Notes under the pieces: model-generated
Databases searched by the model: none
Told to the model about the DNA's origin: nothing
What the model saw: the letters and a program-made list of their open reading frames with translations, nothing else
Translations under genes and position numbers: made by a program
Assembly (NCBI GenBank): GCA_964433905.1
Contig: CAYSSM010000003.1
Span: 1-53,085, forward strand
Reading direction: 5' to 3'
Length of the DNA stretch: 53,085 nt
From: an uncultured Candidatus Saccharibacteria bacterium
GTDB taxonomy: Bacteria; Patescibacteriota; UBA1384; UBA12157; JAENIV01
Shown: positions 1,053-50,310 of the stretch, piece after piece
Layout of the letters: every line of letters begins with the position of its first letter
How positions within the stretch are numbered: position 1 is the first letter of the stretch

Positions 1053-1179
1053 CCCGCTCCTTTGATACTATATATTTAATATAACAAGAATGAATTAAGA
1101 TGACAAGAGACCTTGCCAACTTAAATCCAAATCTCAAATAAAAAATGTCAAATCAATCTCAAATACTTAAATAATTGAA

Positions 1180-1542: not shown

Positions 1543-1580
1543 TTTTGTTTTGATATTTGATATTTCTAATTGAGCTTTGC

Positions 1581-2648: not shown

Positions 2649-2713
2649 AAATCCTCCTTTATAAATTTCTAATTAACCTAATTATACTAATTGACCTAAT
2701 AAATACCCGATGT

Positions 2714-4918
2714 TTAAACGGCGACGGCCCGCAAAACTTCGTTAATGGTGGTAATCCCCTTCAACGCTTTGATAATGCCGTCTTGGCGCATGGTAATCAT
2801 CCCCTCTTTAATGGCTTCGGCCTTAATTTCCGACGACGGCCGGCGAGCGATACAGACATTTTCAATGTTTTCCGTCATTGGTAAAACTTCGAAAATGCCA
2901 ATTCTGCCTTTATAACCGTGATCGCATTCGGAACAGCCCTTGCCTTCGTAAAATTGATATGGCCGCGGAAAATTTAATTTCGAAAGCTCTTCATCAATTT
3001 CTTTTTGAACCAATTCCGGAATATGAGCCGGCCGTTTACATTTTGGACAAAGTTTTCTTACCAAACGCTGGGCCAAAATGGCGTTGATAGACGAAGTAAT
3101 TAAAAACGGCTCAATGCCCATATTGATTAACCGAGGCAAAGCGCCCGAAGCATCGTTGGTATGCAATGTTGTCAAAACTAAATGACCGGTTAAAGCGGCG
3201 TGGGTGGCAAGCGAGGCGGTTTCGGCATCGCGAACTTCACCAACCATAATTATGTTGGGGTCTTGGCGAAGGACGCTGCGCAAACCGTTAGCAAAAGTAA
3301 AGCCGATTTTAGGTTTAATTTGACATTGATTGACACCGGAAATTTCATATTCAACCGGATCTTCCAAAGTGATGATATTTACCGAAGCAGAAGAAATTCG
3401 GTTTAAAATGGCATACAAGGTTGTTGATTTGCCGCAACCGGTCGGGCCAACCGCTAAGACAATGCCGTAGGGTTTATCGGTATTTTCAGTTAAAATTTTT
3501 AAATTCCTGCCCATCAACCCCAGCTCTTCTAAAGTGTACATTCTTAAAGACTTGTCCAAAATTCTCATGGCAACTTTTTCGCCGTGAACCGTCGGCAAAG
3601 TGGAAATTCTTAAATCAATCTGATGACCGGAAGTAATGGCGTCAAAACGGCCGTCTTGAGGAACTCTGGATTCATCAATTTTTAATTTTGAAAGAATTTT
3701 TATTCTTGACATGAGCGCCGGCTGCATTTCGAGAGGAAGTTTGATAATATCTTTTAGAACGCCGTCGACGCGGTAGCGGACGCGTGAATATTTTTCAGTC
3801 GGTTCAATATGAATATCCGACGATTTTTGAGACACAGCTAAAGCCAATACGGCGGCGACAATTTTTGGCACATTTCCGCCGGTAATAAATTGTTCGAGAT
3901 CGATAACTTCTTTAATGGGAGTATCCAAAAATTTGTCCAAATCGTTTTCGGAAGCTATCACCACCGCTTCGGGGGCTTCTTCCGGCTGCGGTGTCGGTAG
4001 AACCGTCGGCTCGGTGGCTTGCGGCTCTTTGGGAGCCTGCTCAACCGCCGGTTTTGGCATAAACCGGCGGGGGGAAATATCCGATTCGGACGGCGGCGGG
4101 GCAATAATTTTTTCTTCTTTGGGCGGACTATAAAATTTCATCGCCCGGCTAATTTGATGTTCATCAGCTTGATAAATATCCAAAGCAATATCGTTTTTTT
4201 CTCTGACAAAATCAAGGATTTCTTGCACTTTTTTATCTTCGGGATGAACCACCGCCACTTTAATAAGCGAGGGATGCGGGGCCTCGAAAACAACCATTTT
4301 GTATTTTCGCGAAATGTCTTCGGGAAATTTGGAAATTACTTCCAAAGAAATATTCATTTTGTCTAAATCAACAGTTTTACCGGTTGCCGCCGGCGGCGGC
4401 AAAGTTGACGCTACTTTTACGGGAATTTCCGCGATAGAGGCTTCTGCCGGTTTTGAGTATAGAGCAATAATTTTTTGAATATCTTCCTCGGTAGTAACGG
4501 CAATTTTGATAACATAGCCTTTTTTCTTTCTTAATTCATCTAAAACATCGCCCAAATCGCTGGAAAGACGATTGGCTTGCGAGGTGGCGACATTTAAAAT
4601 TTTGTTTTGCTTATCAAATTCATAAACAATAGTTTTGTATTTTTCGGCTAAATCTTTGGGAATAATTTCCAAAACCTCACGAGGAATATTACTACTGGTA
4701 AGCGAGATAAAAGGAATGGAAAATACCGCCGAATAGGCTCGGGCGATATCCTCGCCAGAGACCATATGGCTATCTTTTAGCTTTTCTTCAACTTCGATAT
4801 TGGACAAATGTTTCCAACTCGAAGCATCGTCCGGCTTAATTTTGCCGGTTTCCAAAAGAACATCAACTAACTTTTTCTTATCACTTGTTTGCTGAACGTT
4901 TCCGCCACCTATAAACAA
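2714..4918 (-). CDS. pilB: Type IV pilus assembly ATPase PilB/GspE with extended N-terminal region
   Basis: 734 aa. Walker A GPTGCGKST, LTGHLVLTTLHTND, tetracysteine CPKC...CSEC. Two N-terminal T2SSE_N-like segments are separated by a Pro-rich linker. TTG start preceded by AAGGAGG. Confidence 0.9.
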   Translation of the reverse strand: MFIGGGNVQQTSDKKKLVDVLLETGKIKPDDASSWKHLSNIEVEEKLKDSHMVSGEDIARAYSAVFSIPFISLTSSNIPREVLEIIPKDLAEKYKTIVYEFDKQNKILNVATSQANRLSSDLGDVLDELRKKKGYVIKIAVTTEEDIQKIIALYSKPAEASIAEIPVKVASTLPPPAATGKTVDLDKMNISLEVISKFPEDISRKYKMVVFEAPHPSLIKVAVVHPEDKKVQEILDFVREKNDIALDIYQADEHQISRAMKFYSPPKEEKIIAPPPSESDISPRRFMPKPAVEQAPKEPQATEPTVLPTPQPEEAPEAVVIASENDLDKFLDTPIKEVIDLEQFITGGNVPKIVAAVLALAVSQKSSDIHIEPTEKYSRVRYRVDGVLKDIIKLPLEMQPALMSRIKILSKLKIDESRVPQDGRFDAITSGHQIDLRISTLPTVHGEKVAMRILDKSLRMYTLEELGLMGRNLKILTENTDKPYGIVLAVGPTGCGKSTTLYAILNRISSASVNIITLEDPVEYEISGVNQCQIKPKIGFTFANGLRSVLRQDPNIIMVGEVRDAETASLATHAALTGHLVLTTLHTNDASGALPRLINMGIEPFLITSSINAILAQRLVRKLCPKCKRPAHIPELVQKEIDEELSKLNFPRPYQFYEGKGCSECDHGYKGRIGIFEVLPMTENIENVCIARRPSSEIKAEAIKEGMITMRQDGIIKALKGITTINEVLRAVAV

Positions 4919-7313: not shown

Positions 7314-8077
7314 ACAAACACCTCGACTTTTTCCCCTTTTTTGGTTTCAACGACGATTTTGCCTTCCAGGATGCTGTAGCCGCTGACAATCCCTTCAGCT
7401 TTTGGCGATGAATATTTACTGCCTATTTTCGGCATTTTCTTTTTTAATTCTTGGTAATTTTGAGCCTCAAAAGCCAAGCAGCACATTAATTTTCCACAAC
7501 AACCGAATAATTTGTTGGTATTGGAGGTTGAAAGCTCTTGCGTCTGGGCCATTTCCAAAGTAACACTTTCTAAATTATTTAAGAATTTGGAACAACATAG
7601 TTCCCTACCACAACGGCCGATGCCGCCGAAATGTTTGGCTTCATCACGCGAGCCGACTTGCTGAAGGCGGATTAGTTTATTGTAAGATTTGGCTAAATCG
7701 GTAACTAAACTGCGGAAATCAACCCGCCCGGCGGCGCAAAAATAAAAAGTCAGTTTTTTCTCGTCAAAGGAAATATCGACATCCAAAATTTTCATATTGA
7801 GGCCGTGGCGAAAAACTTTTTTTCTGCTTTCTTCCAAATATCCTCGGGCCTGTTTTTTTAGATTTACTAAATTCACCCGGTCGTCAGAACTAACGATTCG
7901 GATAATTTTTCCGTTACCGGTTTCTGCTTCGCCATTTTCCGGCTTTTCAACTAAAACTGCTTGCTCGACAATGCCGTCATTTTCCGCTAGAATTTCCTGG
8001 CCGGAACCCAACGATAAATCGGTCTCAAAAAGATATATTTTTCCCGTTGACGGAAACTTAATAAATATTTTTTTCAT
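7310..8077 (-). CDS. ricT: PSP1 domain protein (YaaT/RicT-like)
   Basis: 255 aa. Cys-rich PSP1 signature GRCGRELCCSKFL and FGCCGKLMCCLAFE. Lies downstream of holB, as in Firmicutes holB-yaaT. Confidence 0.8.
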   Translation of the reverse strand: MKKIFIKFPSTGKIYLFETDLSLGSGQEILAENDGIVEQAVLVEKPENGEAETGNGKIIRIVSSDDRVNLVNLKKQARGYLEESRKKVFRHGLNMKILDVDISFDEKKLTFYFCAAGRVDFRSLVTDLAKSYNKLIRLQQVGSRDEAKHFGGIGRCGRELCCSKFLNNLESVTLEMAQTQELSTSNTNKLFGCCGKLMCCLAFEAQNYQELKKKMPKIGSKYSSPKAEGIVSGYSILEGKIVVETKKGEKVEVFV

Positions 8078-8084
8078 TTTAAAA

Positions 8085-8735
8085 TTAAAATTTTAATAAT
8101 AGATTTTCTAATAGTAATTTTACCGAAGTATTGGTTAAAAGTAAACCTCTTGCCTTAACAATTTCTTTTAGAACGGTTTTTTTATCATGACCGGCCAATA
8201 ATTCTTCCCGAAAACTTTTTTCCCATAAATCGATGATTTTATTAAGATCGGGATTTTCCGACAGTTTGTTGGCATAATCAAAACGTTCTTTAATTGACAT
8301 TTGACCAATCTTTTTAAAATCTACAAAATCGCCTATCTCAACTTCGTCTTCATTTTTCTGGTATAATTTCTGGCATCTTGATTCGATAGTCGGAAGTATT
8401 TTTTCTTTTTTAGCGGCTGTCATAATAATAATCGAGCAAGATGGAGGTTCTTCTAAAGTTTTTAGCAAACAATTGGCGGCATCTAAAGTCAGATTTTCGA
8501 TGTTGTGGATAACCGCCAGTTTATTTTTAGAACTATGCGGTTTGAGAGTAATCCAATGAATTAGCTCGCGAATATGGTCAATTTTGACCGGATTTTCTTT
8601 TAGCTCAATAAGATCGGCGGTATTTACAGTTAAAATTTTTGCTATCAAAGCAATGTCGACTTTGCCAAAAATAATATAAGCGTGGCTTAAACGATCATTT
8701 TTCAGTTGATGTTTTAAAATATCTAAGACTTTCAT
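8085..8735 (-). CDS. holB: DNA polymerase III delta-prime subunit (short form)
   Basis: 216 aa. LSHAYIIFG, NCLLKTLEEPP and TIESRCQ motifs of clamp-loader delta-prime. Confidence 0.8.
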   Translation of the reverse strand: MKVLDILKHQLKNDRLSHAYIIFGKVDIALIAKILTVNTADLIELKENPVKIDHIRELIHWITLKPHSSKNKLAVIHNIENLTLDAANCLLKTLEEPPSCSIIIMTAAKKEKILPTIESRCQKLYQKNEDEVEIGDFVDFKKIGQMSIKERFDYANKLSENPDLNKIIDLWEKSFREELLAGHDKKTVLKEIVKARGLLLTNTSVKLLLENLLLKF

Positions 8736-8760
8736 TTTACGGCTTTAAACTAACATAGAT

Positions 8761-8789
8761 TTGACTTTTTATAAATATGAGTTTACAAT
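8761..8789 (+). promoter_or_regulatory. Candidate sigma70 promoter for the zinc-ribbon gene
   Basis: TTGACT-N17-TACAAT. The roughly 70-nt leader contains hairpins (CCCC atgc GGGG). Confidence 0.5.
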
Positions 8790-8862
8790 ATATATCGAGG
8801 GTACGGGAATATTCCGTCGGTCGAACCTAAAGTTAACCCCATGCGGGGAAAGAAATAATAAT

Positions 8863-9162
8863 ATGGATTTCGAAGACAAAAAACTAAATTGCAAGGAATG
8901 CTCAAAGGAATTTGTTTGGTCAGCCGGTGAACAAAAATTCTACGCTGACAAAGGGCTTCAGAACCCACCAGGACGGTGTCCTGATTGTCGCAAAATGAAA
9001 AAAGAAAGTCGATCGAATCGTGAAATGTATTCGATTATTTGCAAAGAATGCGGCAAAGAAGGTGAAGTGCCTTTTCAACCACGCAATTCAAATGATGTGC
9101 TCTGCGCTGAATGTTTTAAAAAATCGAGAACCCAAACAGGACCAGCTGAATCAAACGCCTAA
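8863..9162 (+). CDS. CxxC-x17-CxxC zinc-ribbon protein (two ribbons)
   Basis: ORF 8761..9162 trimmed to MDFEDKKLNCKECSKEF..GRCPDCRK...IICKECGKEGEVPFQPRNSNDVLCAECF. The region upstream of 8863 is the promoter/leader. Confidence 0.7.
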   Translation: MDFEDKKLNCKECSKEFVWSAGEQKFYADKGLQNPPGRCPDCRKMKKESRSNREMYSIICKECGKEGEVPFQPRNSNDVLCAECFKKSRTQTGPAESNA

Positions 9163-9170
9163 ATATTTCG

Positions 9171-9338
9171 TTATTTAGATGTAAGATTAGTTTTTTGTTT
9201 GGATCTTAAGCAAGCAGTGCAAATATATTTGCCCTGGAATTTTTGAATATTCGGTTTGATTATTCTTTTAGTCCGGTGCAACGAATGAGGACGGTTGTAT
9301 CCAACTTTCGGACTCTTTTCACATATTGCGCAATTCAT
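9171..9338 (-). CDS. rpmB: 50S ribosomal protein L28
   Basis: 55 aa, not in ORF track. Hand translation: MNCAICEKSPKVGYNRPHSLHRTKRIIKPNIQKFQGKYICTACLRSKQKTNLTSK. Matches the L28 pattern C..C.K....G.....HS...TKR...PN.Q. SD AAAGG upstream. Confidence 0.85.
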   Translation of the reverse strand: MNCAICEKSPKVGYNRPHSLHRTKRIIKPNIQKFQGKYICTACLRSKQKTNLTSK

Positions 9339-9475
9339 AATGCCTTTCTTTTTTGCTAATGACTAACTTTTTAGCAAGGTTAATAAGGTAGTTTTTTGAT
9401 ATGCTTTGATGCTATTTAGATATTAATTACCGACAATTTATGTTATCATATTAAAGAAACAAAAACAAGGCTAAG

Positions 9476-10099
9476 ATGCTACTATTTAATTTAATTTCAA
9501 ATCCTCAACAATTTATCGGTTTTATCGTCGCCATTTTGATAGCCATAACAATCCATGAATTTGCCCATGCTTGGACGGCCAATTATTACGGTGATTCCAC
9601 CGCCAAGCAAATGGGACGGTTGACCTTAAATCCCCTCGCTCATTTGGATCTCTGGGGAACGATTTTTTTGCTTATTGCCGGTTTTGGCTGGGGCAAGCCG
9701 GTAATCGTCAATCCCCGAAATTTTAAAAATCCAAAATTGGACAATTTGACGGTATCTCTTGCCGGACCAATGAGTAATCTACTTTTGGCAACATTTTTCG
9801 GATTAATTTACCGCTACTTCCAAATGCCGGGATTGTTGGAGCAAATCGTACTATTATTAATATTTTTCAATCTTGTTTTAATGATCTTCAATCTCATACC
9901 GATTCCGCCTTTAGATGGCTCAAAAGTATTGAGTATTTTTTTAAAAGAAGAAACTTATATCAACTTTCAGCAAATGGGTATTTTTCTCTTGTTCGGTTTA
10001 ATTTTATTTTCGCAATTTTTCCCGATTATACCAACTTTTTTAGAAAAAACCGTTTCGTTCTTTTTCCACATTATCACCGGTAAAACAGTTTTACTTTAA
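9476..10099 (+). CDS. Site-2 protease family (peptidase M50) membrane metalloprotease
   Basis: 207 aa, polytopic. HEFAHA zinc motif in TM1 and LIPIPPLDGSKV second motif. Confidence 0.85.
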   Translation: MLLFNLISNPQQFIGFIVAILIAITIHEFAHAWTANYYGDSTAKQMGRLTLNPLAHLDLWGTIFLLIAGFGWGKPVIVNPRNFKNPKLDNLTVSLAGPMSNLLLATFFGLIYRYFQMPGLLEQIVLLLIFFNLVLMIFNLIPIPPLDGSKVLSIFLKEETYINFQQMGIFLLFGLILFSQFFPIIPTFLEKTVSFFFHIITGKTVLL

Positions 10100-10144
10100 A
10101 AATATGTTTATAGTTGATAAGATGATATCATAAACTATTTAATC

Positions 10145-10217
10145 CGGAGTGTGGCGCAGTTGGTAGCGCACCAGGCTGGGGGTCTGGTGGTCGTCGGTTC
10201 GAGTCCGACCACTCCGA
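10145..10217 (+). tRNA. tRNA-Pro (anticodon GGG), CCA not encoded
   Basis: CGGAGTG TG GCGC AGTTGGTA GCGC A CCAGG CTGGGGG TCTGG TGGTC GTCGG TTCGAGT CCGAC CACTCCG A. C1-G72 and G37 are typical of tRNA-Pro. Confidence 0.85.
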
Positions 10218-10279
10218 CTTTTACGGGTTAAATGCCCTGATTATAGTTTATGGTCTATTATATTTAGTAAGGTAAAATT

Positions 10280-12475
10280 ATGGCATATGAAATACAATTT
10301 GCAAGAGTGACAAATTCCGGAAAATTATCCGACAGATTTTTAACATGCAAACACATAACCGCCGATGATTTGGCAAAATTCCCTATGGGTCAGGTTTTTT
10401 CACTAATAGAAATAATTTCACCATGGTTTCCAACTGCTCAAGTAGGACAAACAATCATTAATAATTTTTCTAAGTACTATTATGAAGGCGGCAGCACATC
10501 TGATTTGGTAAACCTGGAAAATTCACTTAAAAAGGTGAATGAGGATTTAGCCCAAATTACCCAAAACGGCGAAACTGATTGGATCGGCAATCTTAATGGT
10601 ATTTTGGCCGTAATTGCCGGTAATAATTTCCATCTATCGCCTACCGGCAAAGTCGAGGGATATATATTTCGCGACGGCAAAATTAATCACTTAACATACG
10701 GACTTCAAGATAGCGGTGAACCGCATCCGCTGAAAACTTTTTCGAATGTCGTTTCCGGAGAATTAAAAAGTCACGATAAAATCCTATTAACTACTAAAGA
10801 GCTTTTCAACCATCTTTCTTTGGAGTCGGTGCGGCAAATTATTTCTATTAATAATCCGTCAATGGCGGCGCAACAAATTTCTAAACTGCTGAGAAAAAAC
10901 AAAATTAGAAATGTTAACATCATTATCATCAACCTTCTCACAAAAGAAGAAGTTTCCAATGAACAGGCATTTGGAGAGATGGAAAATGTTTACTACTTAG
11001 ATAAAACGACCGAAGGAGTAATGGGCAAAATAAATGACATCTGGAAATCATTTCTTGTTCCTTTCGGCAAAATCATCAAACATAAAAGTAAGGATTTTGG
11101 CAAAAAAACATCGAACCTAACAAAAAATATTGTCAAAGAACCGATTACAAATCAAGAACCGGTAGGAAAACAAGATGATGCTTATCAAGAGTTTCTCGAT
11201 CCCGATAAAAGAGATGACAGTCTCCTAAAAGACGAGGAGATTAAGTATTCGCCAGAGCTTTATGTTCATTATTACGATCAGAAGAAAAATAAACAAAATT
11301 CTTTCTTCGATCAAGTAAAAAATGTCCTTTTTAAAATTTGGTTAAAGTTGAAACAATTCTTTACCTGGATAATTGATATTTATCACGATAAAGCAAGAAG
11401 AAAATATCTCTATATTGCCTTAGCAGTCATACTAATATTAATAATAGGCCTCGTAGTCGGCTTAAAAAATAAAAAGTCCCCTATTGGCAATTTAGACGCC
11501 CAAAAGATTCTTGACGAAGCTTCGGCTGCTGAAAAAGACGGTAAAAATGCGGTGGTAGCAGGAGATAAAGAAAAAGCTAAAGCGCAATTTATTATCGCTA
11601 TTGATAAAGCTAAAAGCATAAAAAGTAATTCCCTGGTAGCAAGAGACGCCGATCAGGTAATCATCAGCACTTATCAAGAATTAGATAAACTGACTTCAAC
11701 CACCCGTTTCAACACACTGACTTCAATAGCCAATATTGCCGATGCAAAAAGTATCTTTGTTGTCTCGGGTATTGGCTTTATTATTACCGACAAGGATATT
11801 TACGAAGTAAATACTCTTGGCGGCACACCGTCTAAAGTTGCGACTATCCCTAAAAATAAGAATTATCTTATCGGCACGCGTCAAGAAAAAATTATTTATC
11901 TTTATACAAGCGATCAAAATATATATAGTTTTAATACCAGCACTAAAAAAATCGAACAAGTAAAAATCACTGATGACAACAAATGGGAAACGGCAAATTC
12001 AATCGCTAGCTATGTCGGCACTTTTTATCTTTTAGACGGAGTCTTGGGTCAAATTTACAAACATTCATCGAGCGCTGACGAGTTCCAAAAAGGCGAAGAA
12101 TACATCAACACAACCAACATTAATTTAAAATCTGCGCGCTCGATTGCCATTGATGGTTCGATCTATGTTCTAAAAGAAAATGGTCAAGCCGTAAAATTGT
12201 TAAAATCGAAAGTCCAGGATTTCTCATTACAAAACATTCCCACGCCAAATGATAAAATCGCTGAACCAATTAAAATATTTACCGATGCGGACACACCCTC
12301 GGTTTATGTTCTTGATGGAGCCCAAAAACGAATTGTTGAATTCGATAAAGACGGTTATTTTGTTCGTCAATACGCTTTCTTAGAAAACATTAAATATTCT
12401 GACTTTTTCGTATCAGTAAAAGCCCGCAAAATCTGGTTGATCGGCGAAAATAACTTATACGAAATATCAATTTAA
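10280..12475 (+). CDS. Hypothetical bitopic membrane protein with a C-terminal beta-propeller-like repeat region
   Basis: 731 aa. Single central TM (YLYIALAVILILIIGLVVGL). The C-terminal half has recurring blades (..IYEVN, ..IYSFN, ..IYKH, ..IYVLKENG, ..VYVLDGAQKRIVEFDKDG). Function unknown. Confidence 0.6.
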   Translation: MAYEIQFARVTNSGKLSDRFLTCKHITADDLAKFPMGQVFSLIEIISPWFPTAQVGQTIINNFSKYYYEGGSTSDLVNLENSLKKVNEDLAQITQNGETDWIGNLNGILAVIAGNNFHLSPTGKVEGYIFRDGKINHLTYGLQDSGEPHPLKTFSNVVSGELKSHDKILLTTKELFNHLSLESVRQIISINNPSMAAQQISKLLRKNKIRNVNIIIINLLTKEEVSNEQAFGEMENVYYLDKTTEGVMGKINDIWKSFLVPFGKIIKHKSKDFGKKTSNLTKNIVKEPITNQEPVGKQDDAYQEFLDPDKRDDSLLKDEEIKYSPELYVHYYDQKKNKQNSFFDQVKNVLFKIWLKLKQFFTWIIDIYHDKARRKYLYIALAVILILIIGLVVGLKNKKSPIGNLDAQKILDEASAAEKDGKNAVVAGDKEKAKAQFIIAIDKAKSIKSNSLVARDADQVIISTYQELDKLTSTTRFNTLTSIANIADAKSIFVVSGIGFIITDKDIYEVNTLGGTPSKVATIPKNKNYLIGTRQEKIIYLYTSDQNIYSFNTSTKKIEQVKITDDNKWETANSIASYVGTFYLLDGVLGQIYKHSSSADEFQKGEEYINTTNINLKSARSIAIDGSIYVLKENGQAVKLLKSKVQDFSLQNIPTPNDKIAEPIKIFTDADTPSVYVLDGAQKRIVEFDKDGYFVRQYAFLENIKYSDFFVSVKARKIWLIGENNLYEISI

Positions 12476-41026: not shown

Positions 41027-42496
41027 TTAGAAACTCAATTTCCCAAACAAATAATTTTTTAGCTCTTTGATTTCGATGCGATCCTGTTTCATGGAATCGC
41101 GGTCGCGGACGGTGACTTTTTTATCTTCTAAGCTATCAAAATCAAAAGTGACGCAGAAGGGTGTGCCGATTTCATCCTGGCGGCGATAGCGCCGGCCGAT
41201 ACTACCTGATTCATCAAACTCGATGTCGCCCCAGCACGATTTTAGATCGTCATAAACTGCGCGGGCATCTTTGGATAATTTCTTGACCAGAGGCAGAACA
41301 GCAATTTTAACAGGTGCCAGTTTTGGGAGAAAATGTAGAACTATTTCGAGGGTGTCATTCTGACTCGGAGAGGAAGAATCTGGCAGTTTATCTGCCAATC
41401 CCGCATTCGCGGGAGATCCTTCGCTTTGCTCAGGATGACTATCTTGACGACCATCAGGAACTTCTTCAAACGCATCACAGATAATCGCCAGCATTAAGCG
41501 TTCAATACCCATAGTTGGCTCGATAACATAGGGAATATATTTTTCCTTGGATTGTTCGTCGAAGCATGATAAACCTTTGCCCGATGATTTTTGATGCGAT
41601 TTCAAATCAAAATCGGTGCGGTTGGCACAGCCCGTCAACTCTTTCCAACCGAAAGGATAATTGTATTGAATATCTACGGTTCTTTTAGAATAGTGCGACA
41701 AGCCTTCTTTAGGATGTTCGTATTGTTTGATATTTTCCTTTTTAATACCAAGCCCTAAAACAAAATCTTCCCAATTTTTCAGCCACTCGTCAAAGAATTT
41801 TTCGTCGTCGCCTGCCTGCCCTGAGCTTGTCGAAGGGGGTTTTACAAAATATTCAATTTCGGCGATTTCAAATTCACGGACACGGAATAAAAAGTCTTTG
41901 GTATTAATTTCATTGCGGAAACTTTTGCCCATCTGCGCGATGCCAAAAGGAACTTTCTTGCGCGAGGTTTCCATCACCTGTTTAAAATTAACAAACATCC
42001 CCTGCGCCGTTTCGGGCCGCAAGTAAGTCATCGATTTTTCATCTTCGATTACCCCGACATGGGTTTTGAACATTGGATTAAATTTCTTCGGTTCTGTAAA
42101 CTCATGTTCTCCCCCATTTGGACATTTGATATTTGAGCTTTGTTTGATATTTGGATTTTGAGTTTTGGAATTTTCTTCTTGCGATATTTCATCGATTCTA
42201 AATCTCTGATGGCACTTGCGACACTCGACCATCTCATCTACAAAATTACCTTCATGGCCGCTGGCCTGCCAAACTTTGCGGTTCATTAAAATCGCCGATT
42301 CAATGCCGACAACATCATCGCGGTCTTCAACAAAAGTCTTCCACCAAAGTTTTTTGATATTATTTTTGAGCGCTAATCCGTAAGGTCCAAAATCGTAAAT
42401 CCCAGAGAGTCCGCCATAGATTTCACTGTCGGGAAAAATGAATCCCCGCCTCTTTGCCCAACTGACAATTTTTTCCAAATTTTTCTCATTTGACAT
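41027..42496 (-). CDS. glyQS: Glycine--tRNA ligase (homodimeric class II type) carrying three repeat-derived in-frame insertions
   Basis: ORF 41027..42523 trimmed to MSNEKNLEKIVSWAKRRGFIFPDSEIYGG. Class II motifs (..YLRPETAQG.., ..FRNEI.., ..EPTMGIERL..) and a C-terminal anticodon-binding domain. Confidence 0.9.
   Translation of the reverse strand: MSNEKNLEKIVSWAKRRGFIFPDSEIYGGLSGIYDFGPYGLALKNNIKKLWWKTFVEDRDDVVGIESAILMNRKVWQASGHEGNFVDEMVECRKCHQRFRIDEISQEENSKTQNPNIKQSSNIKCPNGGEHEFTEPKKFNPMFKTHVGVIEDEKSMTYLRPETAQGMFVNFKQVMETSRKKVPFGIAQMGKSFRNEINTKDFLFRVREFEIAEIEYFVKPPSTSSGQAGDDEKFFDEWLKNWEDFVLGLGIKKENIKQYEHPKEGLSHYSKRTVDIQYNYPFGWKELTGCANRTDFDLKSHQKSSGKGLSCFDEQSKEKYIPYVIEPTMGIERLMLAIICDAFEEVPDGRQDSHPEQSEGSPANAGLADKLPDSSSPSQNDTLEIVLHFLPKLAPVKIAVLPLVKKLSKDARAVYDDLKSCWGDIEFDESGSIGRRYRRQDEIGTPFCVTFDFDSLEDKKVTVRDRDSMKQDRIEIKELKNYLFGKLSF
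41354..41439. repeat. Family M inverted-repeat element inserted in frame in glyQS
   Basis: Arms GTCATTCTGACTCGGAGAGGAAGAATCT and AGATCCTTCGCTTTGCTCAGGATGAC. Internal hairpins GGCAG..CTGCC and CCCGC..GCGGG. Encodes ..QDSHPEQSEGSPANAGLADKLPDSSSPSQND.. Confidence 0.65.
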
Positions 42497-42529
42497 ATTA
42501 TTTCCTTGTCTTAAATATATCATTTTTCC

Positions 42530-42596: not shown

Positions 42597-43082
42597 CTAC
42601 TTGCCGGCCTCGCTACCTTCGGTGTCGAGACGAACGCGGACTACCCGGCAGAAGGGGAACCAGTCGCCGATAAGTGAATCGAGATACAGAATCCACTTAC
42701 CAACATAGTGTGCGCAAACGATGGCTTGATAACCGCGTGAGCACCCGCCAACTTTGCCGCCCGGCCAGACAGTGCCTGTAAAAACCAGTGTGAGTCCACG
42801 CCACTCGACAGGGATACCGTCTTCCTGCTCAAGCATGCGCTCGGCGTAAGACAAACCGGTCGGACCGCCGGGCATTTCCTTCACCCGATCCATCATTTCC
42901 GTCTTCTTAACGTAAGTCTCCCCGTCAGCCTGGATCCTCTCTAAAAACAGCGTTGGCTGGCCGACAACTGGACCAATGTCAGATATCAACCCTTTGCGCA
43001 TCAGCAGCTCCGCTTCTGTCAAATCCCTGGACGGAGTCTCCCGCAAGACCATTTCAGGCAAGGACTGTGTACCCGTCATCAT
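42597..43082 (-). CDS. Hypothetical cytoplasmic protein, GC-rich orphan (likely horizontally acquired)
   Basis: 161 aa. AAGGAG SD 10 nt upstream of ATGATG. Composition visibly GC-rich relative to neighbours. No signal peptide and no recognisable motif. Confidence 0.6.
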   Translation of the reverse strand: MMTGTQSLPEMVLRETPSRDLTEAELLMRKGLISDIGPVVGQPTLFLERIQADGETYVKKTEMMDRVKEMPGGPTGLSYAERMLEQEDGIPVEWRGLTLVFTGTVWPGGKVGGCSRGYQAIVCAHYVGKWILYLDSLIGDWFPFCRVVRVRLDTEGSEAGK

Positions 43083-43293: not shown

Positions 43294-44055
43294 GAACCTC
43301 TTCCGCACCTGGCAGGTGCGGAAAATGGTTAGGAATGTTATACTAGAGTTAAGATGAGAAAAAATCCCTTGGCAAATGGAGAAGTATATCATGTTTTTAC
43401 TAGAAGCATTGCTGACTTTAAGATTTTTAATGATGCTTTAGAGTATGATCGAATATTACAACTTATTAGGTATTATCAAGTGAAAAATAAATCAAAATTC
43501 TCAGATTTTATTGATTCAAGCATTGTCCATCAGATTGGGTTCGATGCGGCGCTGGAAACGGTTTCGAAAAATAATAATCCCCTGGTACAAATAATCGCCT
43601 ATTGTTTGATGCCGACACATATCCATCTGATACTAAAACAACTAACTGACAAAGGCATCTCTATTTATATGAGCAATATTCTCAATGGCTATACAAGATA
43701 TTTCAATATCAAACACCAAAGAAAAGGACCATTATGGGAAAGTGAATTTAAAAATGTCTTAGTAAAGGATGATGAACAACTACTACATTTGACGAGGTAT
43801 CTTCATCTTAACCCCACGACTGCCGACCTTATTAAGAAACCGGAAGATTGGGTATTTTCATCGTATAAAGAGTACCTTTCTCAAACCGAGTCCGATATTT
43901 GTGAATTTGAAGGTATCTTGGAAATTAATCATTCAATATATCGTAAGTTCGTCAATGATAGAATTGCCTACCAAAGAGAACTCGCTAAAATTAAAAGTTT
44001 GATATTAGACTGAACCTTATTCCGCACCTGGCAGGTGCGGTAGATGGTTAGGAAT
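43294..44055 (+). mobile_element. IS200/IS605-like (RAYT-type) unit: Y1 HUH transposase gene flanked by near-identical hairpin repeats
   Basis: A ~43-nt direct repeat at 43294-43336 and 44012-44055 contains hairpin TTCCGCACC-tggca-GGTGCGGAA followed by (A/T)A(A/G)ATGGTTAGGAAT. The right copy overlaps the alr stop codon. Confidence 0.55.
43354..44013 (+). CDS. Y1 (HUH) transposase, IS200-like / REP-associated tyrosine transposase family
   Basis: 219 aa. HUH motif CLMPTHIHLIL and catalytic-Tyr region LTRYLHLNP. Confidence 0.75.
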   Translation: MRKNPLANGEVYHVFTRSIADFKIFNDALEYDRILQLIRYYQVKNKSKFSDFIDSSIVHQIGFDAALETVSKNNNPLVQIIAYCLMPTHIHLILKQLTDKGISIYMSNILNGYTRYFNIKHQRKGPLWESEFKNVLVKDDEQLLHLTRYLHLNPTTADLIKKPEDWVFSSYKEYLSQTESDICEFEGILEINHSIYRKFVNDRIAYQRELAKIKSLILD

Positions 44056-45133: not shown

Positions 45134-45854
45134 ACAAATATCCTTCCGATTTTAATTCTTTGCCACTAGTATGTTTTAAATATCCCCGGGTGATCTGCCT
45201 AATTTCTTTGGATAAATTATTTTCGGTTTTTAATTTATCGATAACAGAAATTCTGTGTTGTAAAAATAACCGTAAAACTTTGATCGCTTCGCTGGAAATG
45301 GAATGTCCGATATCGTGGCGGCAATTTTTACACATCAATCCCCCACTTTCGAAACTAAAAAAATTGCCGGCTTCTTCTAACTTTTTACTGCAGGAAATAC
45401 ATTTATTAAGTTCTGGATGAAAACCAGTTTCTGCTAAAAAATTAAATTCAAAATAAGAGATTAATAAATCGTTTTTTTTTCCATCCAGATGTTCTAATGA
45501 ATTTTCCAATAGCTCAAAAATTTCTTTATGTGGCTCACGATCTTCCGTCAATTTATCAATAATTTCGGCAAAATAAAATGCTGTTTGAGTGGCTTTTAAG
45601 TTACCGCGCAGATTCTTAAAACATTTAGTCGTAACCGCACCCGCCACCGTATCCAACGATCTTCCTTCGACCAAAAGAAGATCATCAACGCAAAATAATT
45701 CAAGATAGCCGGCGAGCTTGCTCAAAGTTTTCCGGACGCCGCGAGCGACGGCTTTTATTTTTCCCAAATCGAAAGTTAAGATCGTTAGAATTCTGTCAGC
45801 TTCACCCAAATTAGATCGTTTAATAATTATGCCGTGGCATTTAAATGTTGCCAT
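45126..45854 (-). CDS. recO: DNA repair protein RecO
   Basis: 242 aa. OB-fold N-domain (GIIIKRSNLGEADRIL) and zinc motif CISC..CKNC. Confidence 0.88.
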   Translation of the reverse strand: MATFKCHGIIIKRSNLGEADRILTILTFDLGKIKAVARGVRKTLSKLAGYLELFCVDDLLLVEGRSLDTVAGAVTTKCFKNLRGNLKATQTAFYFAEIIDKLTEDREPHKEIFELLENSLEHLDGKKNDLLISYFEFNFLAETGFHPELNKCISCSKKLEEAGNFFSFESGGLMCKNCRHDIGHSISSEAIKVLRLFLQHRISVIDKLKTENNLSKEIRQITRGYLKHTSGKELKSEGYLYE

Positions 45855-46608
45855 TTCTCTTCTTTAATACTTTTTCTGCTTGTTTAAGCTGGTCGGGCGT
45901 ATTAATTCCTAATGCTTCTTCCTCATCGGAAACTGGGATTGCAAGGATTTTTTTACCTTGATTACAGGCAATTTCAACAATATCAGTTAAATAAAATTCT
46001 CCTTGAGAATTTTTTTTCTCAATCTTTTTGCCATTTTCCCAAAACCAATCAGCATTAATAATATAAAAGCCGGGATTAGATTCTTTGATTTTTAATTGCT
46101 CCGGCGTGCAGTCTTTTTGTTCTGTAATACCGATAACTTCGTTTTTTTTATTTCTGATAATACGGCCAAAAGCCCAGAATTCCGGATCTTCAAAATTTAC
46201 CGAAAGCATGGCGATGGTTGGTCTTTCTTTTTCATATAGATCTATAAGTTTTTTAATTGTTTCCGTTTTATACAATGGATTATCGCCATAAAAAACAATA
46301 ATAGATTCGGTTTTGCCTTTGAGTACGCTTGCCGCCTGCGTAGTGGCATGACCCGTACCAAGCTGTTTTTCTTGAACCACATATTCGACATCTTTTCCCA
46401 TATAATTCTCAACTAATTCTTTTTTGTAGCCGACAACCAAAACCACTTTTAAAATACCGGCACCTTTAATGGCTTTTACCGAATGCCAAACAATAGGTTT
46501 TCCTAACATTTCAAACATTACTTTAGGAATAGGACTAGCTTTACCTTCATTCATTCTTGTCCCCTTACCCGCCACTAAAATTATCGCCGCATATTTTTCT
46601 TGTTTCAT
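45841..46608 (-). CDS. Sugar-phosphate nucleotidyltransferase (GlmU N-terminal-domain-like, no acetyltransferase LbH domain)
   Basis: 255 aa. LVAGKGTRM and QLGTGHA motifs. Confidence 0.8.
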   Translation of the reverse strand: MKQEKYAAIILVAGKGTRMNEGKASPIPKVMFEMLGKPIVWHSVKAIKGAGILKVVLVVGYKKELVENYMGKDVEYVVQEKQLGTGHATTQAASVLKGKTESIIVFYGDNPLYKTETIKKLIDLYEKERPTIAMLSVNFEDPEFWAFGRIIRNKKNEVIGITEQKDCTPEQLKIKESNPGFYIINADWFWENGKKIEKKNSQGEFYLTDIVEIACNQGKKILAIPVSDEEEALGINTPDQLKQAEKVLKKRNGNI

Positions 46609-46678: not shown

Positions 46679-46720
46679 TTGACAAAAGTATTTGACAAGA
46701 AAATATATCCCGTGATACTT
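46679..46720 (+). promoter_or_regulatory. Tandem candidate promoters for the beta-barrel gene
   Basis: TTGACA (46679) and TTGACA (46692)-N17-ATACTT. The ~90-nt leader has hairpins TTTGATG..CATCAAA and GTTGGGTTT..AAACCCAAAC. Confidence 0.4.
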
Positions 46721-46812
46721 TGATGTTGGGTTTAATCTATCAGTCATCAAAAGAAGGGGGAAGAAAAAACGACTGCAAACCCAAACAACGCTGATCCATA
46801 GGAGGGACTGTT

Positions 46813-47367
46813 TTGCAAAACAGGAATGTTGTGTTGACCGGTCTGATGCTCGTCTGTATGGTGTTGATTTTCTCCGCCACCGCGTTCGCGGCCGGCAACG
46901 AAGTGGGCGTCGGCATCTATTCGTCGTCCGGAGACTTGGGCTATGGCACGAAGCTCGATGCCCAAACCACGCTTGGCCACCTCAAGAACCTCGACATCGT
47001 CGCCGATTACGCTCATGTCTGGGGCCTCGACGACAGTGCCACGGCCACCAATGGCAACCTCTGGGCGACCGCTGAACTCAAGGCCAAGGCTGATTATCTC
47101 GGCGTCGGAGTTCGGAAGTCCAATGGACGTCTCAATGCCAGTGTGACCATCGGCGCGGCGCGATCTGCTGCCAGAGCGACTGTCACTGTCGGCAACCAGT
47201 ATGGCGCTATCGCCTCCGCCAGCGCAAGCGATAGCACGACCAAGTTTGCCTGGCAGCCCAAGCTCAGCTACGAATTGGGCAGCAATGTCTCACTGACTGC
47301 CTCGTACCTGGGCACCGGCACCAAGGCCACCAGCGGCTACAACCTCGGAGTAGCCTACCGCTTCTAG
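46813..47367 (+). CDS. Exported 8-strand-type outer-membrane-protein-like beta-barrel (OMP_b-brl/OmpA-TM-like)
   Basis: 184 aa. TTG start 7 nt after GGAGG. Signal peptide ..FSATAFA|AGNE. Alternating hydrophobic beta-strand pattern. C-terminal ..YNLGVAYRF (terminal Phe beta-signal). GC-rich. Confidence 0.7.
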   Translation: MQNRNVVLTGLMLVCMVLIFSATAFAAGNEVGVGIYSSSGDLGYGTKLDAQTTLGHLKNLDIVADYAHVWGLDDSATATNGNLWATAELKAKADYLGVGVRKSNGRLNASVTIGAARSAARATVTVGNQYGAIASASASDSTTKFAWQPKLSYELGSNVSLTASYLGTGTKATSGYNLGVAYRF

Positions 47368-47403
47368 AAACCGGGACATCCGCCGGCAGATGTCTCACAT
47401 CTT

Positions 47404-47443
47404 CCCCTCCTCAAAGTATCGAGGAGGGGATCTTTTTATTTTA
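47404..47443 (+). terminator. Rho-independent terminator after the beta-barrel gene
   Basis: CCCCTCCTC-aaagtat-c-GAGGAGGGG-atCTTTTTATTTT. Confidence 0.7.
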
Positions 47444-47473
47444 TTGACAAATGCATTTTCATGATTGTATAAT
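47444..47473 (+). promoter_or_regulatory. Candidate promoter for the small exported protein gene
   Basis: TTGACA-N18-TATAAT. GGGAG SD 8 nt before the ATG at 47511. Confidence 0.55.
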
Positions 47474-47510
47474 ATTCTTGGAAAGAATACTAAAAAAGGG
47501 AGAACCATCG

Positions 47511-47897
47511 ATGAGAATGATTGCGGTCGTTGTGGTTGTAATTCTGATAGGAATGGTCACCGCATGGGGAGAGCTAACCAAAATTCCAACCCCTTCTCGA
47601 GGAGTAATCGCTCAACCTTTGATATTCGAACCGCTCGACTACTCGACTCCTGGATATGGGAGTGTTGGCACTGGAGTTGCCACTGGTCTTTCTCGTTTCA
47701 CTTGGCCTCGTTTTGAGATAGTGGAAGACCTCACCAACCCCTCTCAAGTATTGGCTGAACGCTCAGTCATCAACAATCCCAGTTTCCTTGATAGAGGTTT
47801 TCTCAACCAAACACCATCGGTGACCCGAGGACCATTTACCAACATCTCCTCACTTTTTACTGAAATCAAGGTAACGCCTATGGGCGCTGCCAAATAG
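47511..47897 (+). CDS. Hypothetical small exported/membrane-anchored protein
   Basis: ORF 47451..47897 trimmed to MRMIAVVVVVILIGMVTAWG|ELTK.. (the SD-supported ATG). 128 aa, no lipobox, no prepilin motif, no recognisable family. Confidence 0.55.
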   Translation: MRMIAVVVVVILIGMVTAWGELTKIPTPSRGVIAQPLIFEPLDYSTPGYGSVGTGVATGLSRFTWPRFEIVEDLTNPSQVLAERSVINNPSFLDRGFLNQTPSVTRGPFTNISSLFTEIKVTPMGAAK

Positions 47898-47920
47898 ACC
47901 CAAATTCTTTCCACCCATTT

Positions 47921-47960
47921 GCCGGGACTTAAAACTTATTAGGCCCCGGTCTTTTTTTTT
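47921..47960 (+). terminator. Possible terminator after the small exported protein gene
   Basis: Short stem GCCGGG..CCCGGT followed by T9. Confidence 0.4.
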
Positions 47961-47972
47961 GACTAAAAATAG

Positions 47973-48002
47973 TTGACAAAAATCATATAATGATGATATT
48001 AT
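47973..48002 (+). promoter_or_regulatory. Candidate promoter for the secretin gene
   Basis: TTGACA-N18-TATTAT. AAGGAGG SD 9 nt before the ATG at 48043. Confidence 0.45.
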
Positions 48003-48042
48003 ATAGTGTCGCTCAAATTAGAGCGCAAGGAGGTTCCACAAA

Positions 48043-49341
48043 ATGCCTAAAGGCATCAGCACTTTGATATTTGTTCTGGTTATCTTGACAGCGATAGCTA
48101 GTGTCGCCTCGGCTGAAGGCGTCCTGGATACCAAGGTCATGATAAACTACCAAAACAAACCATTCGCCGAAGTCATGACCGATCTGGCCACCCAAGCGAA
48201 GACGCTGGTCAAGTTCGATCCGGCTATCTCGGGAAGTATCACATTGGATTTGGGAGAAACGACTCTGTCCAACGCGTTCAACCAGATCGCCGTGATAACC
48301 GAGACCTATTGGGGTTTGACGCCTGATGGCGTTATCGTGGTTGCCCCACCCAACCCCAAGGGTCCTTATTTCAAGGATATCTCTGAAGTCAGGACCATCA
48401 AGGTCAACCACATCACGGTTGACGAGGTGGTCAAGGCGCTAGCTGATCATCCGTACCTCGGCTTTGCCAAACCGGTTCAGAGCATCAACTCTCTAAGCGT
48501 CATTGCCCCGCCAGCCATCATCGCTCGGCTGGAAGCTGATGTCCGACGGGTCGATGTTCCCAAGCCAATGACCAAAACCAAAGTGGCAGTCCTTGATACC
48601 AGCCGGGTAAAGGACAAAAGGTTCAATATCGACTGGGAATACACCACGGGGTTAGAAAGCACCGGGCCAACAGTTCGCACGATTCAGCTGGCTGGTATGG
48701 ACTTGGGCTACACTAGTATTGGGGCACAAAAAATCCTGATGAGTTTGAAAAACAGCTATTCCAAAGACGAGCTCAAGATTATGGCTCAGCCAGAACTGGT
48801 GGCTCGAGATAACGAAGAAGCAACCCTGAGTTTCGTCAAGCGCTACACGGTACCGTCGGCGATTTTCTATGGCGTTACAACTCCACCGGCTCAATTCAAA
48901 GAGATCGAAGCTGGTATCAAGCTGAAAGTCCGGCCGAGAGTGATTGTTGGTGAAGACGGAGAAAAGTGGATCTTGATTACCATCGAACCGAATGTCTCCG
49001 AGGTGGTTGGCACTGGTCCCTACGGAGTGCCGGTGGTCAACCTGCGCGAAATCTCCTCGACTCTCTTGGTTCGGAACGGGGAAACGATTATCGCGGCCGC
49101 CTCGGTCTCCGATCTCGGCTACGAAATCAAAACCGTAACCAAGGTTCCTATTCTCTCTGAGATTCCGTTGATTGGCAAGCTTTTCATTTGGCCTTCAAAA
49201 CGCCGCGAGGCCAGGAATCAGGAAATTACGATCCTGATAACGCCCAAGATCCTCGAGGCAGGGGAAAAAGAGCCTGAGGTTGAGAAGGCCAAAGTGATAA
49301 TCGAGGAGAGAACACCAGAGAAAGCCCAACCAACCAACTGA
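48043..49341 (+). CDS. Secretin family protein (minimal N0-N3-secretin architecture; pIV/RcpA-sized)
   Basis: 432 aa. Signal peptide ..IASVASA|EG. N0/STN-like domain (NYQNKPFAEVMTDLATQAKTLVKFDPAISGSITLDL). N3-like domain (VRTIKVNHITVDEVVKAL). C-terminal secretin signature ..LVRNGETIIAAA..VTKVPILSEIPLIGKLF..NQEITILITPKIL. Charged tail. Confidence 0.85.
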   Translation: MPKGISTLIFVLVILTAIASVASAEGVLDTKVMINYQNKPFAEVMTDLATQAKTLVKFDPAISGSITLDLGETTLSNAFNQIAVITETYWGLTPDGVIVVAPPNPKGPYFKDISEVRTIKVNHITVDEVVKALADHPYLGFAKPVQSINSLSVIAPPAIIARLEADVRRVDVPKPMTKTKVAVLDTSRVKDKRFNIDWEYTTGLESTGPTVRTIQLAGMDLGYTSIGAQKILMSLKNSYSKDELKIMAQPELVARDNEEATLSFVKRYTVPSAIFYGVTTPPAQFKEIEAGIKLKVRPRVIVGEDGEKWILITIEPNVSEVVGTGPYGVPVVNLREISSTLLVRNGETIIAAASVSDLGYEIKTVTKVPILSEIPLIGKLFIWPSKRREARNQEITILITPKILEAGEKEPEVEKAKVIIEERTPEKAQPTN

Positions 49342-49359
49342 TCAGTCCGATCAGTTCCA

Positions 49360-49414
49360 CCGCTGCGGTAAGCAGAAACAGAAATGTTTTTGTCCTGCCG
49401 TAGCGGTTTTTTTT
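49360..49414 (+). terminator. Rho-independent terminator after the secretin gene
   Basis: CCGCTGCGG..(gcag/ctgc)..CCGTAGCGG-TTTTTTTT. Confidence 0.6.
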
Positions 49415-49467
49415 GTAAATTTTAGCCAAAGTACCACTTCGGAAGTGTGATTCAAAAGGTTGGGATG

Positions 49468-50310
49468 TTATTTTTGACAAATATCGCAATAGAAAGTTCC
49501 CCGACCACCGATGGTGATTCTTTTTACCGCATGGCCTTTGGGATCGGTTTTCTTTTGATAAATTGATGTAACTTCCATATATCTGCCTTTTTTGCCTTCA
49601 ATATTAACATAGGTATTTTCTGATGAGCCACCGTATTCCAAACCCAACTTCAAGACTTTTTCGATTGCATTTTTTAGTTTTGATATCTCATTATCAGATA
49701 AAGATTTTGCTGGTCGCGTTGGCATAATGCCGGCAACATACAAACCGTCATTAGCATAAATATTGCCGACACCGGAAATTTTAGCTTGATCCATTAAAAC
49801 TAATTTAATTGCCTTGTTTGATTTTGAAAAAATCTTCTTCAGATATTTAGATGTGAATTCTTTTTTCCCAGGTTCTGGACCGTACTTATCGGGACCTAAT
49901 ATTTTATCTATCTCTGATGTTTTTACAACTTTATTCCAACCGAATTTTCTAAAATCGTTAAAATAAAGATGAGAACCATCGGAAAAAGTATATGTTATGT
50001 GAGTGTAGGCGTGCGGCAATGGTTGGTCGTAAGCTTTCTGCGAATGTCCCCCAACAGCTTTCGATTTATCGTCTTTATAAATAAGCTGCCCTGTCATTTT
50101 CAAGTGAACAATAATTGAATTGCCGTTATCTAAAACTATTTGCAGGACTTTTGCCACTCGTTTGGCGTCGATAATTTTGCCACCGATAATATCGTTTATA
50201 TCGCCAATAAAAAGCTTCGGCACTTTTATTTCTACATCAGAGATCTTTTTACCTTTGAGCTTTTCGACGATTCCTTTACGAATTGTTTCGACTTCCGGTA
50301 ATTCGGGCAT
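49468..50310 (-). CDS. mutM: Formamidopyrimidine-DNA glycosylase (Fpg/MutM)
   Basis: 280 aa. MPELPEVE N-terminus, H2TH domain, C-terminal zinc finger (..CDICQK). Confidence 0.92.
   Translation of the reverse strand: MPELPEVETIRKGIVEKLKGKKISDVEIKVPKLFIGDINDIIGGKIIDAKRVAKVLQIVLDNGNSIIVHLKMTGQLIYKDDKSKAVGGHSQKAYDQPLPHAYTHITYTFSDGSHLYFNDFRKFGWNKVVKTSEIDKILGPDKYGPEPGKKEFTSKYLKKIFSKSNKAIKLVLMDQAKISGVGNIYANDGLYVAGIMPTRPAKSLSDNEISKLKNAIEKVLKLGLEYGGSSENTYVNIEGKKGRYMEVTSIYQKKTDPKGHAVKRITIGGRGTFYCDICQK

Follow-up and report, generated by a model that had tools for sequence, protein, structure and literature searches.

The subject of this analysis is a secretin gene at 48043-49341 (+ strand) of a 53,085-nt stretch of DNA (contig CAYSSM010000003.1, positions 1 to 53,085), referred to below as the window, together with the small genomic island in which the gene lies. 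This uninterrupted open reading frame (ORF) of 432 codons is confirmed to encode a genuine, intact secretin of minimal layout, composed of a signal peptide, an N0 domain, one ring domain and the barrel, and it is far beyond chance because homologues aligning over the full length exist and because the ratio of nonsynonymous to synonymous substitutions (dN/dS) is 0.22 relative to an 86%-identical copy in another genome. The surrounding chromosome is, judging from its genes, that of a Candidatus Berkelbacteria bacterium from within the Candidate Phyla Radiation (CPR), and the secretin probably forms part of a recently imported, self-contained, diderm-type pore cassette that is not yet integrated in the pilus machinery of its host.

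The gene is preceded by a ribosome-binding site, AGGAGG, 8 nt 5' of the start, and its product begins with a signal peptide (aa 1-24, 48043-48114; ...VASA/EG) whose cleavage after A24 was judged by eye. In the AlphaFold2 model, built on 39 homologues and with a predicted local distance difference test (pLDDT) score of 75.6, exactly two N-terminal alpha/beta domains, namely N0 (aa 31-101, 48133-48345) and an N3-like ring domain (aa 115-170, 48385-48552), are followed by the beta-barrel core with its gate (aa 176-404, 48568-49254) and by a C-terminal helix. Pfam places the Secretin domain PF00263 at aa 240-404 (E = 8.2e-27; 94.3 bits versus a cut-off of 27.5), so the domain search proposed as a check of the original prediction returned a score well over the cut-off, and it adds sub-cut-off matches to Secretin_N (aa 116-175, E = 2e-4) and STN (aa 58-82, E = 0.016); in the same searches AMIN, GspD-N0 (PF21305) and T2SS-T3SS_pil_N gave no match at E <= 1, and no BON domain was found in the protein. 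Foldseek relates the model with a probability of 1.0 to InvG, PilQ, GspD, BfpB, pIV and RcpA, BfpB having the best query-normalised TM-score (0.55) among the listed hits, and in sequence-profile comparisons with the Protein Data Bank (PDB) the secretin matches N0-N1 crystal structures at 5e-5. Pfam, AlphaFold2 and Foldseek thus agree with the original description of a minimal N0-N3-secretin lacking an AMIN domain, and all the strings quoted in its favour are present, including VPILSEIPLIGKLF at aa 368-381 and ITILITPKIL at aa 395-404 in the core. By homology, the protein is predicted to form a 12-15-mer gated pore in an outer membrane.

The tail that follows the barrel (aa 405-432, 49255-49338) reads EAGEKEPEVEKAKVIIEERTPEKAQPTN and is, as first described, rich in lysine and glutamate. 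The accompanying statement that the protein has no S-domain needs to be qualified, since the tail is not a loose end: both the AlphaFold2 model and the alignments reveal a conserved helix at aa 411-423 (49273-49311) whose motif, E..KAK..(I/V)EER.P, is invariant or nearly so across the clade to which the window secretin belongs, and which the PDB profile comparison aligns to the beginning of the S-domain region of GspD. A lipoprotein pilotin was not found, and the protein encoded by the adjoining partner gene has no lipobox.

Regarding its relationships, the window secretin matches all the curated NCBIfam secretin models and falls far under the cut-off of each, with 86.9 bits for GspD (TIGR02517; cut-off 351.35), 81.7 for PilQ (TIGR02515; 284.35), 76.7 for SctC (TIGR02516; 238.45), 54 for MshL (250) and 48 for HofQ (554). 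A family profile run against the PDB ranks GspD first (4e-36), followed by PilQ (1e-28), f1 pIV (2.5e-21), an Acidithiobacillus chain of Tad size (2.8e-17), RcpA (6e-16) and InvG/MxiD (~1e-11), and the alignment with PHROG 1012, the M13 pIV family, runs end to end (aa 30-405 versus 20-401 of 403, E = 4.9e-20). A secretin-family pattern scan found no relative among the GTDB species representatives and none in IMG/VR, and in the JGI metagenome contigs it returned only the contig of locus L004 and a 1-kb fragment; the best INPHARED matches are 22-23% identical, and full-length plasmid matches reach at most ~26%. An exhaustive HMMER search of 1.84 billion representative proteins, which superseded a word-indexed search yielding 7 family members only, retrieved 848 sequences at E <= 1e-30. 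Those at E <= 1e-80 all measure 400-470 aa, the exceptions being gene calls truncated at the N-terminus, for example P0002 (341 aa), while most of the aligned near relatives (P0125-P0134) carry the tail motif; a repeated search with a wider alignment gave mostly GspD among the matches listed.

In a neighbour-joining tree computed on 217 columns of the barrel core (200 bootstraps), with M13 and Pf3 pIV, Enterobacter SctC, Pasteurella PilQ, named GspDs and AMIN-type PilQs from annotated records as references, the window secretin belongs to a 16-member tail clade in 83% of the bootstraps, with every labelled reference outside. Core identity of the clade to these references is 19-29%, being lowest to pIV and Pasteurella PilQ, and the window protein has the traits of the clade, that is, a length of 400-470 aa, the N0-N3-barrel order and the C-terminal E..KAK..EER.P helix. 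Members with a PGYGSVG-motif partner gene directly upstream make up subclade A (the window, L001/L002, L003, L004 and L023, the L-numbers denoting loci of other assemblies), and no such gene is found at the subclade B locus L030. Compared with GspD/PulD (TIGR02517; PDB 5wq7, 5wln), the source of the best sequence matches, the N0, N3, barrel and gate regions align and the conserved C-terminal helix sits where the GspD S-domain begins, but the window secretin lacks N1-N2, is ~250 aa shorter, shares 22-27% core identity with GspDs, which lie outside the tail clade, and has no gsp genes nearby; SctC is likewise outside the clade, and its TIGR02516 cut-off is not reached. On sequence criteria, therefore, the family is a separate, uncharacterised secretin clade with a pIV-like architecture and GspD as its nearest relative in sequence, belonging to neither.

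The secretin gene is the last of three + strand genes that stand amid a run of - strand housekeeping genes and form a foreign island of ~2.7 kb (46690-49450) between glmU (45841-46608, -) and fpg (49468-50310, -). The GC content of the island is 50-61% versus ~36% in the flanks, and GC at third codon positions (GC3) is 0.75 in the barrel gene, 0.43 in the partner gene and 0.61 in the secretin gene, the 22 tabulated host genes having values of 0.25-0.44 (~0.33). The first gene (46813-47367, +), with a TTG start after AGGAGGG and a putative promoter-like site at 46692-46719 (TTGACA-16-GATACT, 10/12 consensus matches in the scan, + strand), encodes a 184-aa exported small outer-membrane beta-barrel protein, with a signal peptide ending AFA/AG, a match to OMP_b-brl PF13505 (E = 2.8e-8, aa 12-184 versus 1-175 of 175), a weak match to the Lom PHROG and a C-terminus ...VAYRF, whose terminal aromatic residue is taken here to be an outer-membrane beta-signal. 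A terminator-like hairpin with a 10-bp stem (7 G-C pairs) and a T-run, TCTTTTTATT, follows at 47403-47430 (+, scan). The partner gene (47511-47897, +) is preceded by the cassette promoter-like site at 47444-47473 (TTGACA-18-TATAAT, 12/12 in the scan, +) and encodes a 128-aa exported small protein with a signal peptide ending TAWG/EL and the motif PGYGSVGTG.A....R..WPR.E; no match was found in Pfam, PHROGs or PADLOC, the single sub-threshold NCBIfam match, to CrcB (0.017), is probably due to chance, and the single-sequence AlphaFold model is confident for the N-terminal helix only.

After the partner gene a short hairpin with T9 (47921-47959, +), terminator-like and conserved in L001, was recognised by eye and is absent from the scan output, and the secretin gene has a promoter-like site of its own at 47973-48002 (TTGACA-18-TATTAT with extended TG, 11/12 in the scan, +), in a region partly conserved in L001. 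Downstream, an inverted repeat, CCGCTGCGG...CCGTAGCGG, followed by T8 (49360-49414, +), is terminator-like with a long loop; it too was seen by eye, is partly conserved in L001 and does not appear in the scan output. The palindrome CACTTCGGAAGTG at 49435-49447, identical in L001 in 13 of 13 bases after a 53-nt gap, is probably the right edge of the mobile unit. Each island gene thus has its own sigma-70-like promoter-like site and its own hairpin-T terminator-like site, and the consensus scan found 11 promoter-like sites in 3.1 kb versus 2.9 expected. No direct or inverted repeats were found flanking the island. The GC island, the companion barrel gene, the conserved partner gene and the CPR host had all been missed in the original prediction.

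The same pair of genes recurs elsewhere: a partner homologue lies directly 5' of a homologous secretin in four other backgrounds (L001/L002, L003, L004 and L023). The secretin of L001/L002 is 86% identical to that of the window and has a GC3 of 0.58 among host genes at ~0.46 (0.61 among ~0.33 in the window); that of L023 is 46% identical, with a GC3 of 0.50 next to a host relA at 0.26; and those of L003 and L004 are 43% identical, in backgrounds of ~0.75, with a secretin GC3 of 0.66 (L003). Across the loci secretin GC3 spans 0.50-0.66 and host GC3 0.26-0.79, and the cassette looks compositionally foreign in every background. Homology between the window and L001 starts at the cassette promoter (~47440), spans the intergenic terminator and promoter and stops at the palindrome 49435-49447, with unrelated sequence 5' of the cassette promoter. 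As the homology does not reach beyond the cassette edges, the partner and secretin genes move together, signals included, as one unit to which the barrel gene does not belong, the latter forming a unit apart. At L023 a 148-aa exported protein of 60% GC, ending ...VGYRF, adjoins the cassette; it has no Pfam match and shows a weak C-terminal match to the window barrel (pairwise E = 3e-5), and a recurrent association of barrel and cassette is at most suggestive.

Between the window and L001 copies, dN/dS is 0.22 for the secretin (dS 0.35) and 0.41 for the partner (dS 0.26), values that speak of purifying selection on both genes. With 24 versus 34 synonymous third-position changes in the comparison with the L001 copy, AT-ward drift is absent in the window secretin, and residence in the AT-rich host should therefore be recent. 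No type IV pilus (T4P), type II secretion system (T2SS), Tad or inovirus (Zot) gene lies within 10 kb of the cassette in any locus.

Several observations concern the loci of relatives. At L001, three additional genes occur beside the cassette (7866-12289): a 222-aa ORF of GC3 0.69 with weak sigma-70 r2/r4 matches and a weak CARF-type PADLOC match (E = 3e-4), a Y1 transposase gene of GC3 0.36 adjoining the cassette and, downstream (~11534-12289), an N-terminally truncated second secretin of the other subclade, 36% identical to aa 184-432 of the window protein; the site appears to be a hot spot for cassettes. Mobilisation of the element by a Y1 transposase was considered but found no support, the transposases beside the L001 cassette and 3.4 kb from the window cassette being only 28% identical and none having been seen at L003, L004 or L023. 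A search with GpsA gave relatives of 55-59% identity, one of them encoded on the nearest relative of the L001 backbone, L031 (8238-13378 of a 929-kb contig), which has the same plsY-gpsA-desulfoferrodoxin-P-type ATPase order, with plsY fused to a shikimate-dehydrogenase-like domain (588 aa), and the cassette is absent from the 21-kb stretch examined; that a single contig reaches 0.93 Mb hints at a small-genome lineage and proves nothing. At L024 (1576-6225), three secretin genes stand in tandem (423, 569 and 556 aa, ~25% identical to the window secretin), with no pilus or T2SS genes alongside.

The assignment of the host follows from the genes around the island: the alanine racemase encoded nearby falls into one cluster with KKQ74565.1, a protein of Berkelbacteria bacterium GW2011_GWB1_38_5, and the nearest syntenic GTDB representatives, with Fpg 77% and 73% identical, are labelled as Patescibacteria group. 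The remaining content of the window includes the dcw cluster, aminoacyl-tRNA synthetases and the pilus genes encoding PilC, PilT and PilB (3-4918), which lie >43 kb from the secretin. In the related genome L005 (Fpg 77% and MraZ 86% identical), the gene order is cofD-glmS-fpg-[150-aa ORF]-glmU-recO-...-glyS-mraZ, and neither the barrel, the partner nor the secretin gene is present at the syntenic site, so the island has either been inserted into a variable slot or replaced what stood there. ENA scaffolds from two samples, one contig each from JGI and Logan, and the NCBI assembly GCA_000992805.1 all reproduce the island and its two junctions with 100% identity.

Surveys of the CPR report neither PilQ nor a Gram-negative envelope or outer membrane (PMC6744442, PMC7143001, PMC4508563), and secretins have been described as absent in monoderms (PMC6668835) and specific to diderms (bioRxiv 10.1101/2020.07.15.205187). 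In view of the CPR surveys, the cassette is most simply taken as a recent import from a diderm-type source, and in this host it may be idle. As its homologues suggest, the secretin would be exported by Sec, and 12-15 copies would oligomerise within a lipid membrane to give a gated beta-barrel with a double wall; the partner would probably dock on the conserved C-terminal helix and help with assembly or stabilisation, in line with its co-occurrence and with the position of the helix. Pilotins bind S-domains, and on type IVb secretins BfpG and TcpQ play such a role. The pairs BfpB-BfpG (PDB 9u5s) and TcpC-TcpQ resemble the cassette in that a small exported protein is encoded directly 5' of the secretin, but the window secretin has no lipobox cysteine (ASA/EG), its partner has no Pfam similarity and no bfp or tcp genes are nearby. 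Were the secretin used, the T4P (PilB/PilT/PilC) would be the only secretin-compatible machine seen in the window, and the only outer membrane available would be that of the cell to which the epibiont attaches.

Several points weigh against the idea of a recent and still unintegrated import of diderm type. The purifying selection emerges from a comparison of copies in two hosts and could stem from constraint outside this one, and an unchanged foreign composition may suit a soon-lost passenger as well as a useful gene. A diderm-type source is presumed, and expression and assembly of the secretin in this organism are at most predicted. The interaction of partner and tail is probable from co-occurrence and conservation only, for a partner with no detectable fold or family. 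Deeper nodes of the tree are weak, and Tad references were not in it. The gene content read is that of the window, so that outer-membrane biogenesis genes (BamA, Lpt, Lol) may exist elsewhere in the genome, and PMC4508563 cites a single report of an OD1 outer membrane. Finally, three assemblies show anomalies within the secretin gene at ~48231-48302: contig L021 stops at 48231, a gap of 10 N begins at 48232 in L020, and the NCBI contig L019 lacks 48233-48302, splitting the gene into calls of 70 and 341 aa; a coverage dip, strain variation or a gap-closing error could be the cause.

A pore in the outer membrane of a host cell, or in an unrecognised outer layer of this lineage, offers more interesting readings than idle import. 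According to the latter, the gene would supply the missing PilQ, and a PilB/PilT/PilC pilus would use the secretin to cross an outer layer belonging to the Berkelbacteria cell itself. PilC, PilT and PilB are indeed present in the window, the OD1 report speaks in favour, and secretins of the same size and layout serve pili: a 436-aa secretin (P0039) closes a pilM-led five-gene operon, and Pasteurella PilQ, adjoining pilP, has 444 aa, so the small size of the protein, which had been advanced as an argument against PilQ, loses its force. The short pilus and competence secretins (Pasteurella PilQ/ComE, HofQ, P0039) share with the window protein its length and its two N-domains plus barrel, but they end pilM/N/O/P-type operons, as the window gene does not, their core identity to it is 19-26%, and it remains far under the TIGR02515 and HofQ cut-offs. 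In addition, a distance of >43 kb separates the gene from the pilus genes, the foreign island on which it lies is missing from L005, none of the five loci has a pilM/N/O/P-like gene beside the cassette, and thousands of CPR genomes have been surveyed without PilQ or a Gram-negative envelope. The view that there is no straightforward partnership with the pilB/T/C genes is therefore upheld, and placement within PilQ, the outcome that would have spoken for such a partnership, was not obtained, since the window secretin falls outside the PilQ references in the tree and the model contains no missed N-domains; a PilQ role is considered unlikely. A rather unlikely alternative is an offensive or interface pore, in which the epibiont exports the secretin, partner and barrel into the outer membrane of a diderm neighbour and so creates a gated conduit for a pilus, DNA or nutrients. 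Each of the three island proteins starts with a Sec signal peptide and is encoded behind a strong promoter-like site of its own, the recipient reportedly lacks an outer membrane, and a similar trio of partner, secretin and small exported protein ending GYRF occurs in the low-GC L023 background (relA GC3 0.26). Some secretins, such as PulD and pIV, insert themselves into lipid bilayers without the beta-barrel assembly machinery (BAM), and insertion from the side of the epibiont would keep the usual topology, with the N-domains towards the pilus machine. Against this, the foreign composition, still unchanged, indicates that the island arrived very recently, the barrel of L023 lacks a Pfam match and shows only weak C-terminal similarity to that of the window, and the same cassette is found in 62%-GC genomes that look free-living. 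The corresponding idea that the host outer membrane serves as the outer membrane of the epibiont's T4P or uptake machine, through a pore-forming interface device gained by horizontal transfer, is likewise held to be doubtful.

The original prediction had named phage pIV and Tad secretins as the closest architectural analogues, and only the first half of this comparison stands. If the gene were an inovirus remnant, it would encode the pIV export channel left by a decayed prophage, and filamentous phages have co-opted secretins (PMC6668835). The window protein resembles pIV (PHROG 1012; PDB 7ofh) in its N0-N3-secretin layout, in its end-to-end PHROG alignment, in size (M13 pIV 426 aa, Pf3 pIV 430 aa) and in lying outside any pilus or T2SS operon, and its mobility and foreign composition would also suit a phage remnant. 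A phage derivation is nevertheless quite improbable, since no pI/Zot, coat or replication gene is present in the island or any related locus, IMG/VR holds no relative and the best phage matches are just 22-23% identical; M13 and Pf3 pIV share 19-20% core identity with the window secretin and fall outside its clade, and the conserved C-terminal helix and small partner gene of the clade were not seen in the two phage records examined, where M13 gene IV directly follows gene I. As to a Tad-pilus secretin of RcpA/CpaC type (PDB 8odn), the overall length and the secretin core are comparable, and RcpA and the related Acidithiobacillus chain are matched in the PDB, but these matches (6e-16 and 2.8e-17 versus 4e-36 for GspD) are among the weakest and involve the barrel core alone, no Tad-type N-domain (T2SS-T3SS_pil_N or BON) is present, and no tadZ/A/B/C or cpaF lies near any family member; a Tad origin is accordingly regarded as extremely improbable. 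The search for tadZABC/cpaF and pI (Zot) partners that had been proposed was thus negative in the window island and the related loci, its scope being these loci. The other half of the proposal, a repurposed pore, is a fair description given the foreign origin. Lastly, an assembly chimera or contamination, with the island foreign to the Berkelbacteria chromosome, might be suspected from the sharp GC contrast and from the three assemblies that break or differ at ~48231-48302. However, the island lies inside its contigs, flanked left and right by host genes, several contigs are continuous through the 48.23-kb spot, and identical junctions across samples, sources and independent assemblies make a chimera very unlikely; an artefact of this kind is scarcely credible. 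A genuine secretin in a recently imported cassette, not yet integrated in the host pilus machinery, hence remains the favoured interpretation.

Secretins are treated as markers of the diderm envelope, and their absence is one argument for CPR without an outer membrane; a Berkelbacteria chromosome that carries an intact, promoter-equipped secretin cassette beside an outer-membrane barrel gene departs from this rule. Should the cassette be no more than a recent import, outer-membrane genes would reach CPR genomes horizontally, and the presence or absence of PF00263 would need care when envelopes are deduced from it; should it be in use, it would be relevant to the ways in which ultra-small epibionts get through or across the envelope of their hosts. 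Whatever the host, the cassette belongs to an uncharacterised mobile clade of orphan secretins with a conserved C-terminal helix and a dedicated small partner, a compact two-gene system small enough for direct biochemistry and structural work.

Other features of the window deserve mention. An ORF at 42597-43082 (-), 161 aa without signal peptide, has a foreign composition (56% GC, GC3 0.64), gives no match in Pfam, PHROGs or PADLOC (the three island proteins also being without a PADLOC defence-system match) and is absent from the syntenic L005 region; it has the look of another import, at a distance of 4 kb from the island. Nearby, an IS200-like Y1 transposase gene (43354-44013, +; Pfam Y1_Tnp, 4.5e-6) with a host-like GC3 of 0.31 lies between two copies of a palindromic element of 36 nt (TTCCGCACCTGGCAGGTGCGG...; 43301-43336 and 44020-44055), an arrangement that resembles a REP (repetitive extragenic palindromic)-associated tyrosine transposase unit, and both this unit and the adjoining alr gene are absent from L005. 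Among the pilus genes, an ORF at 1180-1623 (-), between pilC (3-1067) and pilT (1581-2648), matches the Pfam family 23S_rRNA_IVP (E = 4.5e-15). The glycyl-tRNA synthetase at 41027-42523 (-) has 498 aa versus ~438 aa in L005, to which it is 70% identical, and the extra residues include Ser/Pro/Gln-rich stretches such as ...QDSHPEQSEGSPANAGLADKLPDSSSPSQNDT...

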